Below are positions 40,149 through 47,470 of a stretch of 64,000 bases of DNA, one piece after another. Position 1 is the stretch's first letter. Each line of letters begins with the position of its first letter. This stretch comes from Patescibacteria group bacterium (GTDB lineage: Bacteria; Patescibacteriota; Doudnabacteria; UBA920). The DNA lies in NCBI GenBank assembly GCA_036726225.1, contig DAIMCS010000001.1, forward strand, positions 188,885-252,884, written 5' to 3'. The notes beneath the pieces were generated by a model. That model made no database searches. It was not told the DNA's origin and saw only the letters and a program-made list of their open reading frames with translations. The position numbers and the translations under genes are program-made.

Positions 40149-40835
40149 ATGAAAACTCTAATCAGCCTAAAGTCAGCCGTTTCTAAAAGCTTTAACTTAA
40201 ATGTTATTGCCTTGCTCTTGCTGATCCCGGTAATTTTTCCGGAATTAGCATTGGCTTCTGAACTTGCCACTTTAGGTTCACAGGGTCAAATTTTTGAAAT
40301 CAAAATTACTGGTTCAACGGTGTTGGATCAGTCTCCAAAACAAAACGACAACAATTCTTTAACAATGAAAGAGCTTGAGGACAACGACCCGTTGGTTGTT
40401 GCCTTAAGACAATATCTTGAAAAGTTAGGTTCACCTTTAAGCATTTACGCCGCAGATATAGTTAAGCAGCCGCAATGGCAAAGAGCTTTGGCTATTTCCT
40501 GGGTGGAAAGCAACATGGGTAAACACTGCTACGACAACAACTGTAGCGGTATTGGGGTAAAACCCGGCCACCCGGCTTGGAGAAAATATAAAACCAAGCT
40601 GGACTGGTTTATAGACATGTGTAAGCTAATGGAAAAACCTATCTATAAAGAAAAGTACACCACCTTCAAACAAATGAGGGGAGTGTACGTGGTCCCGGGA
40701 AGTGATGCGTGGGTAAACGGAGCTACACAAAAATATGGTCAGTTAGTTTCATTAACTGAACAAGCCTCGTTAGACAGACAGAAAAAGGCGCAATTAGTAG
40801 CAGCCTTAGTTACTTTTCCGGAAAATATAGACTAA
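40149..40835 (+). CDS. Secreted hypothetical protein
   Basis: Start trimmed to MKTLISLKSAVS... (signal peptide); track ORF 5' extension overlaps element F; terminator 40842-40870. Confidence 0.5.
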   Translation: MKTLISLKSAVSKSFNLNVIALLLLIPVIFPELALASELATLGSQGQIFEIKITGSTVLDQSPKQNDNNSLTMKELEDNDPLVVALRQYLEKLGSPLSIYAADIVKQPQWQRALAISWVESNMGKHCYDNNCSGIGVKPGHPAWRKYKTKLDWFIDMCKLMEKPIYKEKYTTFKQMRGVYVVPGSDAWVNGATQKYGQLVSLTEQASLDRQKKAQLVAALVTFPENID

Positions 40836-41204: not shown

Positions 41205-41396
41205 CATCCCAAAAACGCGTGCTCTCCCGACAAAAGTCGGGATGCGCTCCACGTTTTTGGGAGGTCTATATAACAAATCCTCAGCTCAAAAAAGGGCTCT
41301 CAAAAATGCAATGCATTTTTGGGAAAGAGGAGTTCGTGACGCAGAGCGTAAATTCCGACGTTAGTCGGAATGCAAGCTCACAGGCACGAACGACGA
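41205..41396 (+). ncRNA. Structured tRNA-leader element (copy E, two cccaaaaa/tttttggg modules) upstream of tRNA-Leu(TAA)
   Basis: ...GCAGAGCGTAAATTCCGAC-GTTA-GTCGGAATGCAAGCTCACAGG core with compensatory changes in the hairpin relative to copies A-C; outer stem gttcgtg/cacgaac. Confidence 0.55.
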
Positions 41397-41483
41397 GCCT
41401 GGGTGGTGGAACTGGCATACACTACAGACTTAAGATCTGTCGCCCGCAAGGGATTGAGGGTTCGACTCCCTCCCCAGGCACCA
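41397..41483 (+). tRNA. tRNA-Leu(TAA)
   Basis: GCCTGGGTGGTGGAACTGG...ACAGA CTTAAGA TCTGT...long variable arm...GGTTCGACTCC...CCCAGGCACCA. Confidence 0.85.
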
Positions 41484-41498
41484 AATAATATACAACTA

Positions 41499-41846
41499 AT
41501 GAATCCTGTTGTTGAACTACTCCAAAAACTTCCGGTCTGGCTGCTGCTAATTTTGAGCGCCTCCTCGGTCATTGCTGGAGATTTTTTTGCAAAATATTGG
41601 TCAATCCATTTGCGTAGTGTCTTTTATTTCCTCGCAATTGCCAGCTATATGCTGTCCGGATTTTTTTATATTCCTACCCTGCTGCGGGAAGGATTAATTG
41701 TAACTTCGGTCATATGGAGCGTTTTGAGCATTGTGGGGTTCCTAGTAATTGGCCTGCTTATTTTTAAAGAAACTTTATCAACTGTGGAAATAGTTGGCGT
41801 TTTATTTGGCGTGATCTCGCTAGTCATTTTAAGTATAAGTAAATAA
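41499..41846 (+). CDS. Small DMT/SMR-like 4-TM membrane protein
   Basis: Start trimmed to MNPVVELLQ (track ORF begins inside tRNA-Leu); 115 aa, four TM helices. Confidence 0.5.
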   Translation: MNPVVELLQKLPVWLLLILSASSVIAGDFFAKYWSIHLRSVFYFLAIASYMLSGFFYIPTLLREGLIVTSVIWSVLSIVGFLVIGLLIFKETLSTVEIVGVLFGVISLVILSISK

Positions 41847-41867
41847 ATGTCCTAAAGCTTTACAAAA

Positions 41868-42035
41868 ACCATTTGACAAGCTAAAAGCTTTGTCGTAAAT
41901 TATGTGTACTATTAATTTTTGAAGGAGTTGGATAGAAAAAAAGACCCACACGACATCTACAACCAAAAACAAGCAAGTCAACTCAATGGCTCAGTTTGGC
42001 GTAAACAAATTCTTTAAGGGTTTGTTTTTTTATTT
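41868..42035 (+). promoter_or_regulatory. Conserved cis-element copy 1: promoter (TTGACA-17-TAAATT), conserved leader, intrinsic terminator upstream of GNAT gene
   Basis: TTGACA 41873-78, TAAATT 41896-901, aaggagTTG 41922-30, terminator aaacaaattctttaagggtttgtttttttat about 42003-42031; paralog at 42666-42832. Confidence 0.6.
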
Positions 42036-42154
42036 GCCACACAGGCTGGCCAAAAGCATTGACAAAAATTCAAAAAATCTATAAAATAAGCGGTTAGACT
42101 TTTTTCTTCCGCCAATGTTCATCAATTTTTGGTGACTGGTGGCGGAGGGAAAAA

Positions 42155-42574
42155 GTGAAGAACTTCAAAATCAGAGAAGCTACAAAAAAGGATCGGCCGG
42201 CTATTTTGGCACTCATCAGGATGATGGGGCCAAAAAAACTATTTCAGACAAATTTGCCGACCTACAAGTCCTTCTTCGTGGCTGTTGTTGGAGGAAAGGT
42301 AGTGGGCTGCGGCGCCTTGCAGATCTATTCTAAAAGGATTTGCGAAATTAGGAGCTTTGCAGTCCACCCGGATTATCAAGGGAATGGGATCGGGCCAGCG
42401 CTGGGAAAAGCTTGCATGTTCAGAGCTAAAGAGAGAGGAATCATCGAACTCTTCACCATTGCCAACAAGAAAGCTAAAGCAATGTTCCAAAAATTAGGAC
42501 TCAGAACCCTGTTCAACGAAAAATACGCAATGCTTGTCGTTTTTGGCAAAAGCCCCGAAACACTCCCGAAGTGA
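42155..42574 (+). CDS. GNAT family N-acetyltransferase
   Basis: 139 aa, GTG start after GGAGGGA RBS; acetyl-CoA motif QGNGIGPALGKA. Confidence 0.75.
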   Translation: MKNFKIREATKKDRPAILALIRMMGPKKLFQTNLPTYKSFFVAVVGGKVVGCGALQIYSKRICEIRSFAVHPDYQGNGIGPALGKACMFRAKERGIIELFTIANKKAKAMFQKLGLRTLFNEKYAMLVVFGKSPETLPK

Positions 42575-42665
42575 CCACCAAGGAAAAGAGTGTTTGGACA
42601 TCCACAAACACTCTTTCCTCCCATCCTGCTAAAAAACCTTCTCTGCTAATAAAATTTAAGGAAAA

Positions 42666-42832
42666 AATATTTGACAAACAATTAGCTTTACTGTAAATTA
42701 TGTTTAATATTAATTTTTTAAGGAGTTGGAAAGAATAGAACACTCGTCCCTTTTTAACCAAAACCGACAAAGTCAAGTCAATGGCTTAGTTCAACGTTAA
42801 CAAATTCCTAATGAGTTTGTTTTTTTATTATA
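42666..42832 (+). promoter_or_regulatory. Conserved cis-element copy 2 immediately upstream of hss (terminator ends about 25 nt before hss start codon)
   Basis: TTGACA 42671-76, TAAATT 42694-99, aaggagTTG 42720-28, short ORF 42726-42800, terminator aacaaattcctaatgagtttgtttttttat. Confidence 0.6.
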
Positions 42833-42853
42833 AAAATTTTAAATCAACAAAAT

Positions 42854-44302
42854 ATGAAGAAAAAATTTGACCACAAAATTTTAATTATAGGCTACGGCTC
42901 GGTTTCACAGTGCACGCTGCCCATTCTTTTAGAAATGATAGACGTGCCGCTTAACAATGTCACCATAATGGATTTTGAAGACAAGGCGACAATGCTTAAA
43001 CCTTTTACTGACAAAGGCATAAATTTCGTCCGCAACCGCATTACCAAAGAAAATTTAGGCAGTGAACTGGCCAAATACACGGACAAGGGCGGGTTAGTTA
43101 TAGATTTGGCCTGGAACATTGGCGCAAATGACATAATTGGCTGGTGCCACGACAACAATGTTTTTTATGTAAATACTTCTGTGGAAGTTTGGGACTCAAT
43201 TGAAGGTTTATTCAAAGACAGCCCGTACGAAAAATCCCTCTACTTTAGGCAGATGAAGCTTCGGGAGATGACTAAAGACTGGAAAGACGCCACCACAGCC
43301 GTGGTAGACCACGGCGCCAACCCCGGACTTATTTCCCATTTTGTTAAACAGGGCTTAGTGGATATTGCCAATAAAATGATTGCAGATGGCAAAGCCACCG
43401 GGTCTGATAAAGAACAACTGGAACAATTTATAAAAGACCGCCAATTTAACAAACTGGCGCAAAAATTAAGCGTTAAAGTTATTCACTGCAGCGAACGTGA
43501 CACACAAATTACCAACCGGCCAAAAGAGGTAGACGAATTTGTAGGCACTTGGAGCGTGGAGGGCTTACGCGAAGAAGGCACGGCGCCGGCGGAAATGGGC
43601 TGGGGAACACATGAACAAAAATTGCCCGATCTCGCACATGTTCCGCCCATTGGGCCAAAAAATCAGATCTTCTTAGCACAAATGGGTATTAACACCTGGG
43701 TAAGGTCGTGGATTCCAAATGAAGAAATAATTGGTATGGTCATCCGCCACGGCGAAGCATTCGGACTCTCTGACCGTTTAACGGTTTGGGAAGGGGAGAA
43801 GGCGATTTTCAGGCCCACCGTTCACTATGCCTATATGCCTTGTCACGAAACTTTATCCAGTTTAGTGGAGCTAAGGGCTAGAAATTACGAAATGCAGCCA
43901 AAGGTCAGAATTATGCAGGACGAGGTTACTTCAGGCAACGACATTTTAGGAGCTCTCTTAATGGGGCATGCTTACAATTCCTGGTGGACGGGCAGCGACT
44001 TGAGCATTGAAGAAGCACGGCGCTTGGCTCCGGGCCAAAACGCGACCACTTTACAGGTGGCATTAGGCGTAATTTCCGCGGTCTTATGGATGTTTGAAAA
44101 CCCAAACCAGGGCATTTGTCTGCCGGACGATCTTCCCCACGATTTTGTGCTGAATATTTCCAAACCTTACTTAGGCAAATTTATTTCCACGCCTTCAGAC
44201 TGGACGCCGACCAAAAACCGCAAAATCTATTTTAAAGAAAACCCGGCCAGCCAAGCTGCTTCCGACGTATGGCAGTATGAAAATTTTAAATTTATTCCAT
44301 AA
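42854..44302 (+). CDS. hss: Homospermidine synthase (NAD-dependent, bacterial type)
   Basis: 482 aa; collinear with bacterial HSS (GYGSVSQCTLP..., GANPGLISHFVKQ, TWSVEG, GQNATTLQVA, SDWTP). Confidence 0.85.
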   Translation: MKKKFDHKILIIGYGSVSQCTLPILLEMIDVPLNNVTIMDFEDKATMLKPFTDKGINFVRNRITKENLGSELAKYTDKGGLVIDLAWNIGANDIIGWCHDNNVFYVNTSVEVWDSIEGLFKDSPYEKSLYFRQMKLREMTKDWKDATTAVVDHGANPGLISHFVKQGLVDIANKMIADGKATGSDKEQLEQFIKDRQFNKLAQKLSVKVIHCSERDTQITNRPKEVDEFVGTWSVEGLREEGTAPAEMGWGTHEQKLPDLAHVPPIGPKNQIFLAQMGINTWVRSWIPNEEIIGMVIRHGEAFGLSDRLTVWEGEKAIFRPTVHYAYMPCHETLSSLVELRARNYEMQPKVRIMQDEVTSGNDILGALLMGHAYNSWWTGSDLSIEEARRLAPGQNATTLQVALGVISAVLWMFENPNQGICLPDDLPHDFVLNISKPYLGKFISTPSDWTPTKNRKIYFKENPASQAASDVWQYENFKFIP

Positions 44303-44314
44303 TAAAAAACATAA

Positions 44315-45586
44315 ATGATATCCCAAGAACGAAAAAAATTTTTACAGGAATTGGCACAAAAACACGGCACGCCGCTGTTTGTGGTTGACCATGAAATCTT
44401 GCGCAAAAATTACCAGGAATTCCGTGAAAACCTTCCGGACGTCCAGGCTTACTTTGCCGTAAAGGCAAACTGCAACCCCGAAATTATTAAAACCATGTTC
44501 GACATGGGCTCAAGTTTCGACGTGGCTTCAATTTGGGAATTTAAGCAGGTTTACGAAAACATTAAAGACTGGGGTGAAAAAGAAAAACAGGATTTTGTTT
44601 GGGACAAAGTAATTTACGCCAACACAATTAAGCCGGCGAAAGTTTTAAAAAAACTCGACCCCTATAAAATTTTAGTCACCTTCGACAATATTGAAGAATT
44701 AAAAAAGATTAAAGAACATGCGCCCAATGTGCGTTTAGTCCTGCGCATCCGGGTGCCTAACACGGGCTCCATGGTTGAGCTGTCTTCTAAATTCGGCGCG
44801 CATCCGGGAGAAGCCGTGGATTTAATTGGCGAAGCCGTAAATATGGGCCTAAGTGTGGAAGGCATAAGCTTCCATGTGGGCAGCCAGTGCCAAAATTTTG
44901 AAAACTATGTCCAGGCCTTAAACCTTTGCTCTTCCATATTTAAAGAGGCGGAGCTTAGAAATTATGAAATGGGTTTTTTAAACCCGGAAGGCATAAGAGT
45001 AAAAACCTTGGACATTGGCGGAGGCTTCCCGGTAAAATACAACGGCGGCGGAAAACCGTTTAGCTCGCTGGCAAAAAAAATCAATTCGGAAATTAAGCGG
45101 CTGTTCGGCAAAAATGGAATTGATGTTATTGCTGAACCCGGAAGATTTATTGTTGCCACCTCCGCGACTTTGGTGACTAAAATTATTGGAAAATCTGTAC
45201 GGGACGGAAAAACCTGCTACTACCTGGACGACGGTGTCTACCATACATTTTCTGGGCAAGTTTACGACCACCAGCAGTATCCGCTTCACGCCTTTAAAGA
45301 AGGCGAGTTAAAAGTTTGCTCCACCTTTGGCCCGACTTGCGACGCTTTTGACACAATTTCGCTTTCAGACGAGCTGCCGGAAGATTTGCAAATTGACGAT
45401 TTGCTTTACGCTGAAAATATTGGCGCTTATACGCTTGCTTCCGCAACTGACTTTAACGGCTTTCCTGAAGCCCGCATAGTCCACATAAACACTAACCGAC
45501 AACCAATTAAGGAAGGGGAGCCGCCAAAAGAATTCGTAGTTGTAGACAATCCTTTGTCTAAAATGTCCAGCCGCCTAGTCTCATAA
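44315..45586 (+). CDS. PLP-dependent ornithine decarboxylase-like (alanine racemase-fold, group IV decarboxylase)
   Basis: 423 aa; YFAVKANCNPEI PLP-lysine motif, GGGF, EPGR; 12 nt downstream of hss. Confidence 0.8.
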   Translation: MISQERKKFLQELAQKHGTPLFVVDHEILRKNYQEFRENLPDVQAYFAVKANCNPEIIKTMFDMGSSFDVASIWEFKQVYENIKDWGEKEKQDFVWDKVIYANTIKPAKVLKKLDPYKILVTFDNIEELKKIKEHAPNVRLVLRIRVPNTGSMVELSSKFGAHPGEAVDLIGEAVNMGLSVEGISFHVGSQCQNFENYVQALNLCSSIFKEAELRNYEMGFLNPEGIRVKTLDIGGGFPVKYNGGGKPFSSLAKKINSEIKRLFGKNGIDVIAEPGRFIVATSATLVTKIIGKSVRDGKTCYYLDDGVYHTFSGQVYDHQQYPLHAFKEGELKVCSTFGPTCDAFDTISLSDELPEDLQIDDLLYAENIGAYTLASATDFNGFPEARIVHINTNRQPIKEGEPPKEFVVVDNPLSKMSSRLVS

Positions 45587-47171: not shown

Positions 47172-47470
47172 ATTTTCCTTTTCTAAACCAATTTTTAGGT
47201 TAACACCGTTTAGTCAACGATTAACACGGATCCGTGTTAATCGGTTTTTCATCTGTGTTCATCCAATGTTTCTAAATAAAAAACCAACGTTTTAATTCGT
47301 TGGGTAAATTAAAAACAATATTACTTTGGTTAATTGTTAAATAGTGCTAAATCAATGGCTTATTTGGGGTTAATAATTTTATTTATATTCTTTAGCACTT
47401 ACGCAAATAAGCATTAGGATTATAGCATTTTGTATAAAAAAAGCAAGGGCTTCACGCCCCTGCTTTTCCC

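Follow-up and report, generated by a model that had tools for sequence, protein, structure and literature searches.

A candidate translation-coupled transcription attenuator before polyamine-biosynthesis genes in Candidatus Doudnabacteria

What is the role of a promoter, a short leader and a terminator which stand together, in two copies, before genes linked to polyamines? The question is raised by a stretch of 64,000 nucleotides from a Patescibacteria group bacterium of Candidatus Doudnabacteria (assembly GCA_036726225.1, contig DAIMCS010000001.1, positions 188,885 to 252,884 of the forward strand), which is called the window below. Two paralogous elements of about 165 nucleotides (nt) each were located in it at 41868-42035 and 42666-42832 by reading of the sequence and pairwise alignment. 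The first (copy 1) precedes a GNAT acetyltransferase gene and the second (copy 2) precedes a homospermidine-synthase-like gene (hss) followed by a decarboxylase-family gene. Most probably the element is a hitherto undescribed switch that governs polyamine production. As its mode of action, a lineage-specific, cis-acting and translation-coupled transcription attenuator of polyamine-biosynthesis genes is tentatively proposed, a reading which may well be right but falls somewhat short of being probable.

The two copies in the window and their homologues

The layout of the two copies is as follows, where ORF stands for open reading frame.

41873..41901, plus strand: copy 1 promoter P1, TTGACA-17-TAAATT (promoter scan, 10/12 matches)
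41922..41930, plus strand: copy 1 AAGGAG abutting TTG (0-nt spacing), GAGTTG motif, mini-ORF start (alignment)
41928..42017, plus strand: copy 1 leader mini-ORF, 29 codons and TAA, stop in the terminator loop
41976..41991, plus strand: copy 1 hairpin P1, AGUCA / loop ACUCAA / UGGCU, with the core GTCAAnTCAATGGC at 41977-41990
42004..42031, plus strand: copy 1 intrinsic terminator, AACAAATTC, loop TTTAA, GGGTTTGTT, T-run (dG -6.1 kcal/mol)
42671..42699, plus strand: copy 2 promoter P1, TTGACA-17-TAAATT (promoter scan)
42720..42728, plus strand: copy 2 AAGGAG abutting TTG
42726..42800, plus strand: copy 2 leader mini-ORF, 24 codons and TAA, stop over the first bases of the terminator 5' arm
42771..42786, plus strand: copy 2 hairpin P1, AGUCA / AGUCAA / UGGCU, with the core at 42772-42785
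42799..42826, plus strand: copy 2 intrinsic terminator, AACAAATTC, loop CTAAT, GAGTTTGTT, T-run (dG -6.0 kcal/mol)

The two copies showed 75% identity in an alignment of nine element sequences, with a single 3-nt indel over about 165 nt. The stretches TATTAATTTTTnAAGGAGTTGGA and AAGTCAAnTCAATGGCTnAGTT are common to both, as is the pair CGTnAACAAATTC ... GTTTGTTTTTTTATT. Each long conserved block occurred exactly 2 times in the 64-kb window when up to 3 mismatches were allowed, the expectation from shuffles being 0.00-0.01. A covariance model search of the window returned only copies 1 and 2 (E about 1e-17), and the next best hit had an E value of 0.2. An earlier sequence-only reading of this DNA had described paired elements with a shared promoter, shared blocks and a terminator; re-reading and alignment of both copies confirmed this description. 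The same reading had placed the copy 2 terminator about 25 nt before the hss ATG. The measured gap is 27 nt, between the end of the T-run at 42826 and the ATG at 42854, and the promoter scan called no promoter in it.

Eight further distinct homologues were found in seven related Candidatus Doudnabacteria genomes, which brings the total to ten copies in eight genomes. These are the window copies (c1 and c2) and the loci L094, L095, L100 (= L101), L102, L103, L104, L106 and L109 (= L110/L111). L094 and L095 came from a search of metagenomes for the core of the 3' block; of its 10 pattern matches, 8 were rejected as chance matches to the 19-nt core. These two loci revealed a synteny of protein X (window 40149-40835), tRNA-Cys(GCA), tRNA-Leu(UAA) and the element, and the other six were taken from contigs of protein X homologues with 51-64% identity. 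The covariance model built from all ten copies recovered these copies only from the collected loci and the window. Each copy has both a promoter and a terminator and so makes up a full transcription unit.

The genes which follow the element in the window, and those which follow it in each copy, are listed here (aa, amino acids; PLP, pyridoxal phosphate).

42155-42574, plus strand: GNAT acetyltransferase, 139 aa (Pfam), closest to ArgA-like amino-acid N-acetyltransferases, below cutoff
42854-44302, plus strand: homospermidine-synthase-like protein with saccharopine dehydrogenase fold, 482 aa (Pfam)
44315-45586, plus strand: PLP-dependent Orn/DAP/Arg-decarboxylase-family gene, 423 aa, second gene of the operon (Pfam)
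Window c1: GNAT downstream
Window c2 and L100/L101: hss downstream
L094, L095, L103, L104, L106 and L109: 461-aa Orn/Arg-decarboxylase-family gene downstream, N-terminus MTTKSAxKKKNGFxKFWRLG
L102: downstream gene outside the contig, which ends about 50 nt past the terminator

The downstream gene is thus known for 9 of the 10 copies, and in 9/9 it is polyamine-linked and lies on the same strand, 20-230 nt beyond the element: the 461-aa decarboxylase-family gene in six, homospermidine synthase in two and GNAT in one. The 461-aa protein is closest to SpeA-like arginine decarboxylases, below cutoff, and the 423-aa protein of the window falls below every NCBIfam cutoff. In L100/L101 the element stands between GNAT and hss; the window GNAT has 56% identity to the GNAT preceding the element and hss in L100, and the window hss is 80% identical to the one which follows the element in L100/L101. 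The link to polyamine genes which the sequence-only reading had drawn therefore held in all nine resolvable copies. The downstream genes in relatives were tabulated as that reading had asked, and an occurrence before functionally unrelated genes only was not what they showed. One part of it has to be amended: copy 1 is indeed in front of GNAT, but it does not abut the gene, a promoter (42059-42087) and a hairpin (42098-42156) being placed between them.

The association with these genes has outlasted several rearrangements. It is kept although the tRNA-Cys/Leu pair is inverted in L095 and L109, it is kept in L100 where the element has moved from the tRNAs to a place beside hss, and it is kept in the window, where the element was duplicated long ago and where both copies share a mutual identity of 75-79% with L100. 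The comparison across relatives thus supports a functional link of the element with polyamine genes. Relatives of hss from other phyla and other Patescibacteria (best 82% aa identity) were covered by 80 loci, and outside the Doudnabacteria relatives neither nhmmer nor the covariance model detected an element upstream of the gene; the element does not travel with hss generally. GNAT homologues of about 50% identity were found in unrelated contexts without the element, and a scan of viral contigs gave no match. The relative represented by L113/L115, which has protein X and the tRNAs without the decarboxylase, showed no element in the available 7-kb locus. Five other assemblies of the same genome, from soil and groundwater, were 99.9-100% identical, and the locus carried no informative variation among them.

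Some further observations were made around these loci. A site at 47340-47366 of the window (plus strand), GCTAAATCAATGGCTTATTTGG, has 13 consecutive bases, AATCAATGGCTTA, in common with the invariant block of the element. It is intergenic, between an S1-domain gene and the next genes, and lies 40 nt past a TAAATT; its region scored E = 0.21 with the covariance model, has neither a Shine-Dalgarno (SD) sequence with TTG nor a terminator, and is absent from the equivalent region of relatives. The site may represent the remnant of a third copy, or the resemblance may be due to chance. Homing-endonuclease-like ORFs (LAGLIDADG or GIY-YIG) were seen between or beside tRNA-Cys and tRNA-Leu in L102 (5910-6581), L106 (5961-6602), L113 (6063-7011) and L103 (5869-6114). 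In L113/L115 the 5' half of tRNA-Cys occurs twice, on both sides of the inserted ORF, which suggests insertion into or beside the tRNA gene. Three other Patescibacteria loci carry a promoter-like block before hss (L005:5880-5960, L006:2960-3010 and L007:820-870) of the form CTTG(C/T)GCATTTT...(T)TTATAAT...TAATTTAAT(T/A)AT, which is unrelated to the Doudnabacteria element.

Conserved parts of the element

The conservation of the individual parts was examined along the alignment. The -35 and -10 hexamers (TTGACA, TAAATT) are invariant in all 9 sequences of the nine-sequence alignment. The promoter is followed by an AU-rich stretch of about 20 nt and then by (A/G)GGAG abutting TTG; the motif GAGTTG was present in 9/10 copies, L103 having TCATTG, and the TTG itself is invariant. 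From the TTG to the next conserved block there is a spacer of 46, 47 or 49 nt, which is A/C-rich and G-poor and whose sequence is essentially randomised. The block, GUCAAnUCAAUGGC, is invariant except for one loop change in L109. It can form a hairpin of 5 base pairs (bp), AGUCA/UGGCU, with the hexaloop AnUCAA, and about 12 nt separate this hairpin from the terminator. The RNA predicted from each element is about 120 nt long.

Conserved structure beyond the 5-bp hairpin and the terminator was not obtained from the aligned copies: RNAalifold gave none and left the 5' 75 nt unpaired, and an exhaustive helix scan gave weak candidates only. Single-sequence folding of the window copies yielded z-scores of -0.1 and -0.8. 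As only the short hairpin and the terminator fold and the z-scores are near zero, a riboswitch-type aptamer is not supported. The sequence-only reading had seen the geometry of an attenuator or riboswitch here, and the riboswitch did not survive folding and covariation analysis of the copies, which gave no aptamer-sized conserved structure. Searches with 4227 Rfam models, over the whole window at gathering score and over 41700-43000 at E<=10, returned only tRNAs and noise. The complement of the invariant block was not found in the 64-kb window beyond chance, two extra matches with 2 mismatches being at the chance level.

Other uses of the block were considered and rejected. The block contains a conserved ATG, which was discarded as a start codon because in most copies a stop comes directly after it. 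A T-box-like sensing of tRNA, with UGGC pairing to the tRNA 3' end and CAA as specifier, would be at odds with the geometry, the two sites being adjacent and the RNA too short. An antisense promoter arising from TTGAC in the complement of the block was dismissed because no conserved -10 follows.

The terminator shows selection on RNA structure. In the window its stem has 9 bp, AACAAAUUC / GRGUUUGUU, followed by U7, and all ten copies have a 9-10-bp A/U-rich stem followed by U7-U8. In the alignment 94% of the cells are paired and compensatory changes occur in 4/9 pairs. The covariation score was reached by 0/500 shuffles, and controls slid along the alignment were 24-50% paired. The compensatory changes indicate that the terminator is under selection as a hairpin, and the covariation check which had been suggested earlier thus came out in favour of it. 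The hairpins are weak, with dG from -6 to -10 kcal/mol across copies. A terminator scan called those of L104, L094 and L109 and left the window copies uncalled, which have less than 3 G-C pairs and do not show the G+C-rich stable stem expected of intrinsic terminators. These properties are compatible with a weak and tunable terminator in an AT-rich genome. In L094 (961-1000), L100 (8120-8160) and L104 (6598-6636) it was also observed that the U-run and the next bases of the terminator (e.g. UUGUUGUC) can pair about 20 nt downstream (GACAACAA), which would make a second hairpin over the terminator tail.

The frame which starts at the TTG is open in 10/10 copies for 24-29 codons; the other two frames, counted over the first nine copies, are open in 3/18 cases. 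Relative to the first base of the terminator 5' arm, the stops of the TTG frame range from 2 nt upstream to 13 nt downstream. The stop is at the first bases of the arm in c2, L100, L102 and L106, 3 nt inside it in L103, and in the terminator loop in c1, L094, L095, L104 and L109. From dinucleotide shuffles the chance of an open frame per copy is 0.20-0.49; over all copies together this gives about 3e-5 when each counts as independent, and around 5e-3 for about five independent lineages. That the ORF is open in all ten copies and ends at the terminator points to translation-coupled attenuation. The short TTG ORF, which had been set aside earlier, is probably part of the mechanism.

What appears to be conserved, if the mini-ORF matters, is the act of translation and not the product. 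The two window peptides are alike (MDRKKDPHDIYNQKQASQLNGSVWRKQIL vs MERIEHSSLFNQNRQSQVNGLVQR); the 3-nt indel between them is in frame and the exchanges D/E, I/L, Y/F and L/V are conservative. Similarly the N-terminus of L104, MERI...NQN, is as in c2 and L100, and in this copy the frame is shifted by a 1-nt indel ahead of the block and restored by one of 2 nt behind it. Across the homologues, however, the peptides have neither conserved residues nor a shared codon run, and their N- and C-termini vary freely. Between c2 and L100 there are 4, 5 and 4 differences at the first, second and third codon positions, which gives no third-position bias. The block is read as SQxNG in 5 copies and as SxQWL in 5, so it is conserved as nucleic acid and the peptide is unconstrained. 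Of the two related statements in the sequence-only reading, conservation of the 3' block at the RNA level is borne out, since the mini-ORF crosses it in two frames; the absence of peptide conservation does not describe the two window peptides, which are similar, and is right across the homologues. A +1 frameshift at CUU-AGU was considered and rejected, the site not being conserved in c1, L103 and L104.

A proposed switch and its rivals

The attenuator is proposed to work in the following way. Transcription of the polyamine genes would depend on read-through of the weak intrinsic terminator, and translation of the mini-ORF would set the extent of this read-through. A ribosome which follows close behind RNA polymerase would reach the mini-ORF stop and, because of the geometry of the stop codon, would cover the 5' arm of the terminator. 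With the arm covered the hairpin could not form, and the polymerase would go on into the hss-decarboxylase operon or, in the relatives, into the decarboxylase gene. When there is no such ribosome the terminator would form and a short RNA would be released. The invariant hairpin about 12 nt before the terminator is the likely sequence-specific control point, acting either as a pause or synchronisation hairpin or as a binding site for a factor or ligand. Zero spacing between the SD sequence and the UUG start may make initiation rate-limiting and tunable. Pairing of GAGUU in the SD region with AAUUC at the end of the terminator 5' arm may serve as an antiterminator and is taken as a lead; it can be drawn in most copies, six of which allow 7-12 bp. 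The regulated genes and the precedent in E. coli suggest that the signal may be a polyamine, arginine or ornithine.

Several points weigh against this attenuator. The GAGUU:AAUUC pairing is found in 76.7% of the cells vs 72.2% in shuffles, of which 31/500 reach the observed value (permutation p = 0.065). It appears in the minimum free energy folds of the shortened RNA for 5/10 copies, and no convincing antiterminator structure was found. A mere pause hairpin would not need a fully invariant 14-nt block. The zero spacing of the SD sequence to the UUG is a poor context for canonical initiation and is used by no genuine gene of the window, an alternative start at a canonical distance from GGAG was not consistently found in the aligned copies, and L103 has no GGAG. 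SD sequences are rare here, as 12/54 long ORFs of the window have GGAG, GAGG or AGGA 3-11 nt before a candidate start, and initiation in this organism seems largely SD-independent. Given the abutting SD sequence and this rare use, translation of the mini-ORF is a prediction only. The A/C-rich composition also means that an open frame of such length is not rare (0.2-0.5 per copy).

A further difficulty comes from promoters located after the terminator. A near-consensus promoter (10-11/12 matches) between terminator and gene was present in at least 4 of the 10 copies, namely c1, L094, L103 and L104, and L109 probably has one as well (TTGACT-17-TACTCT). In c1 this promoter is followed by a separate hairpin.

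42059..42087, plus strand: second promoter P2, TTGACA-17-TAAAAT, between the copy 1 terminator and GNAT (promoter scan, 11/12 matches)
42098..42156, plus strand: very stable hairpin which buries the GGAGGG SD sequence and the GTG start of GNAT (folding)

The 461-aa decarboxylase has its own promoter of the form TTGACA-17-TAnnnT downstream of the element terminator in L094 (1051-1105), L103 (6622-6665), L104 (6735-6785) and, probably, L109 (6188-6242). It is followed by a conserved 5' untranslated region, AGCAGTTAATTA, without an SD sequence in L094, L103 and L109, and by a diverged one, ATCAGTTAGTAATT, in L104. In these decarboxylase loci the element is formally a self-contained transcription unit, and in all copies with a second promoter attenuation would be bypassed or only additive. 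Obligatory read-through, which the sequence-only reading had claimed for the hss-decarboxylase operon, stands for copy 2, where this operon has no other detectable promoter and so needs read-through of the terminator. It fits L095 too, in which only 20 nt separate terminator and ATG; for c1, L094, L103 and L104, with their second promoters, read-through is not obligatory.

The invariance of the block suggests specific recognition by a factor or ligand, and a different attenuator can be built on this. The ORF would then be incidental, and an RNA-binding regulator or a small cation such as a polyamine would decide termination by binding to the hairpin AGUCA-AnUCAA-UGGCU and its flanks, with the logic of PyrR, TRAP or ANTAR systems or of a minimal riboswitch. 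Such recognition explains the invariant block better than coupling to translation does, for the 14 nt have remained invariant while protein X is only 51-64% identical and the spacer is randomised. The fixed distance of 46-49 nt from GAGTTG to the block suggests recognition at two sites, terminators of -6 to -10 kcal/mol would be easily tipped, and the gene association fits equally. An aptamer-like fold is missing though, covariation is not seen outside the terminator, the z-scores are near zero and no Rfam model matched at E<=10. ANTAR targets have an A..G.. hexaloop pattern and two hairpins, unlike the hexaloop AnUCAA and the single hairpin found here. Recognition of the hairpin would also leave unexplained why all ten copies keep the TTG frame open and why its stops gather at the terminator, and this attenuator is considered unlikely. 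If the element is instead a stand-alone small RNA gene, trans-acting or dual-function, its transcript of about 120 nt with an unstructured 5' region would use the block as seed or protein-binding site, and the polyamine genes beside it would rely on their own promoters or on leaky read-through. The promoter and terminator of every copy agree with this, as do the strong independent promoters past the terminator in at least 4/10 copies and the conserved neighbourhood of stable RNAs after tRNA-Cys and tRNA-Leu. Small RNA seeds typically consist of an invariant block, single-stranded or in a hairpin, between variable flanks, and the element has this architecture. But its orientation and adjacency to polyamine genes outlast inversion of the tRNAs, relocation and duplication, and the window has one copy per polyamine transcription unit, as expected of a cis element and not of a trans-acting gene. 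Moreover copy 2 and L095 leave no space for a further promoter, the 64-kb window holds no complement of the block beyond chance, and the open frame is conserved; a stand-alone RNA is thus regarded as unlikely, though the second promoters keep it a live rival.

The conserved open frame may also be taken at face value, as a gene for a functional product of 24-29 aa, for example a decarboxylase modulator. The order of promoter, SD-like motif, start, ORF, stop and terminator is gene-like, the ORF is present in 10/10 copies, and the window peptides look similar. The reading of the conserved nucleotides in two frames largely refutes it, and together with the missing third-position bias between c2 and L100, the variable termini and the zero spacing between SD sequence and start it makes a small-protein gene very improbable. 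It is rather improbable, too, that the element has no conditional function and is a strong promoter with a leaky terminator, or an operator or roadblock at the DNA level, which travels with the polyamine genes. Both promoter hexamers rank among the most conserved parts and the block could be a DNA-binding site. Compensatory changes, however, keep the RNA hairpin and the U-run, the spacer length and the open frame are conserved, and it is hard to see what purpose a promoter with its own terminator right behind it would serve if termination were unconditional and the short RNA had no function.

The translation-coupled attenuator remains the preferred reading, and a more far-reaching form of it was also considered. 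In this form the cassette would be the first RNA device of the Candidate Phyla Radiation (CPR) which senses the polyamine pathway (polyamine, arginine or ornithine). Translation of an upstream ORF (uORF) would be coupled to a weak intrinsic terminator and gated either by the 14-nt hairpin, as a minimal sensor recognised by ligand or ribosome, or by a polyamine-tuned UUG abutting the SD sequence. This combination would set it apart from speFL, mdtU and every known riboswitch. The proposal is speculative and its truth is doubtful.

Neighbouring features and known systems

The hairpin before GNAT consists of 17+7 bp with -34.6 kcal/mol and z = -6.1, 0/200 shuffles fold as well, and it is placed just downstream of the promoter at 42059-42087. 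Its fold suggests that translation of GNAT has a control element of its own. Hairpins rich in GC, with the pattern CCGCC...GGCGG, were also noted past the element in L094, L100 and L104. On the other side of copy 1, a mechanically called 158-aa ORF at 41370-41846 overlaps tRNA-Leu (41397-41483). Other assemblies call a 115-aa hydrophobic protein at 41499-41846 instead, which is probably the actual gene; it matches no family, and relatives lack it at this position. Over the 64-kb window 12 tRNA genes are dispersed singly.

Patescibacteria of the CPR have very small genomes in which few transcription factors can be recognised, and they seldom use Shine-Dalgarno sequences; to our knowledge almost nothing has been established about their gene regulation. 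If the attenuator is real, it would be among the first candidate regulatory RNAs of CPR bacteria and would be dedicated to polyamine synthesis. It would also mean that premature termination of polyamine genes linked to a uORF arose independently of speFL and mdtU and with different parts. The cassette is small, about 120 nt, and its short defined motifs (GAGUUG, GUCAAnUCAAUGGC and the terminator) are open to in vitro work though the organism is uncultured.

Leader ORFs, intrinsic terminators and polyamine cis-leaders are familiar parts. The family of elements described here is undescribed, as no Rfam match was obtained and literature searches on CPR or polyamine leaders and on riboswitches gave nothing relevant to this element. 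In attenuators of the pyrBI type and of the trp/his type a leader ORF runs into the terminator, and a following ribosome blocks the terminator hairpin. The element resembles them in its promoter-proximal mini-ORF, in the intrinsic terminator before structural genes and in a small hairpin at the distance of a pause hairpin. It differs from them in that there is no regulatory codon run, no U-rich pause tract and no demonstrated antiterminator, that the SD sequence abuts the UUG, and that several copies have a second promoter past the terminator.

The nearest functional precedents are speFL and mdtU of E. coli, which respond to ornithine and spermidine respectively and in which translation of a uORF is coupled to premature Rho-dependent termination (PMC7815308). 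Like the present element, speFL is a leader ORF of about 30 codons before a basic-amino-acid decarboxylase/polyamine operon (speF-potE), and the ribosome at the end of the uORF decides between termination and read-through (PMC7815308). Unlike speFL with its conserved arrest peptide and its Rho-dependence, the Doudnabacteria element has an unconserved peptide, a 14-nt RNA block and an intrinsic terminator, and there is no sequence similarity. The leader mdtU of the spermidine exporter mdtJI likewise joins uORF translation and premature termination at a polyamine-pathway gene (PMC7815308); its Rho-dependent termination, its conserved peptide C-terminus and its restriction to Gammaproteobacteria are not shared. 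The Rfam speF element (RF00518) is similar in being a cis element before an ornithine-decarboxylase-type gene, and it differs as the present element has no Rfam match, belongs to a CPR lineage and has no comparable structure. Compared with these systems the combination is unusual: an unconstrained peptide, an invariant 14-nt block inside the ORF, a UUG abutted by the SD sequence, a spacer of fixed length and free sequence, and frequent bypass promoters.

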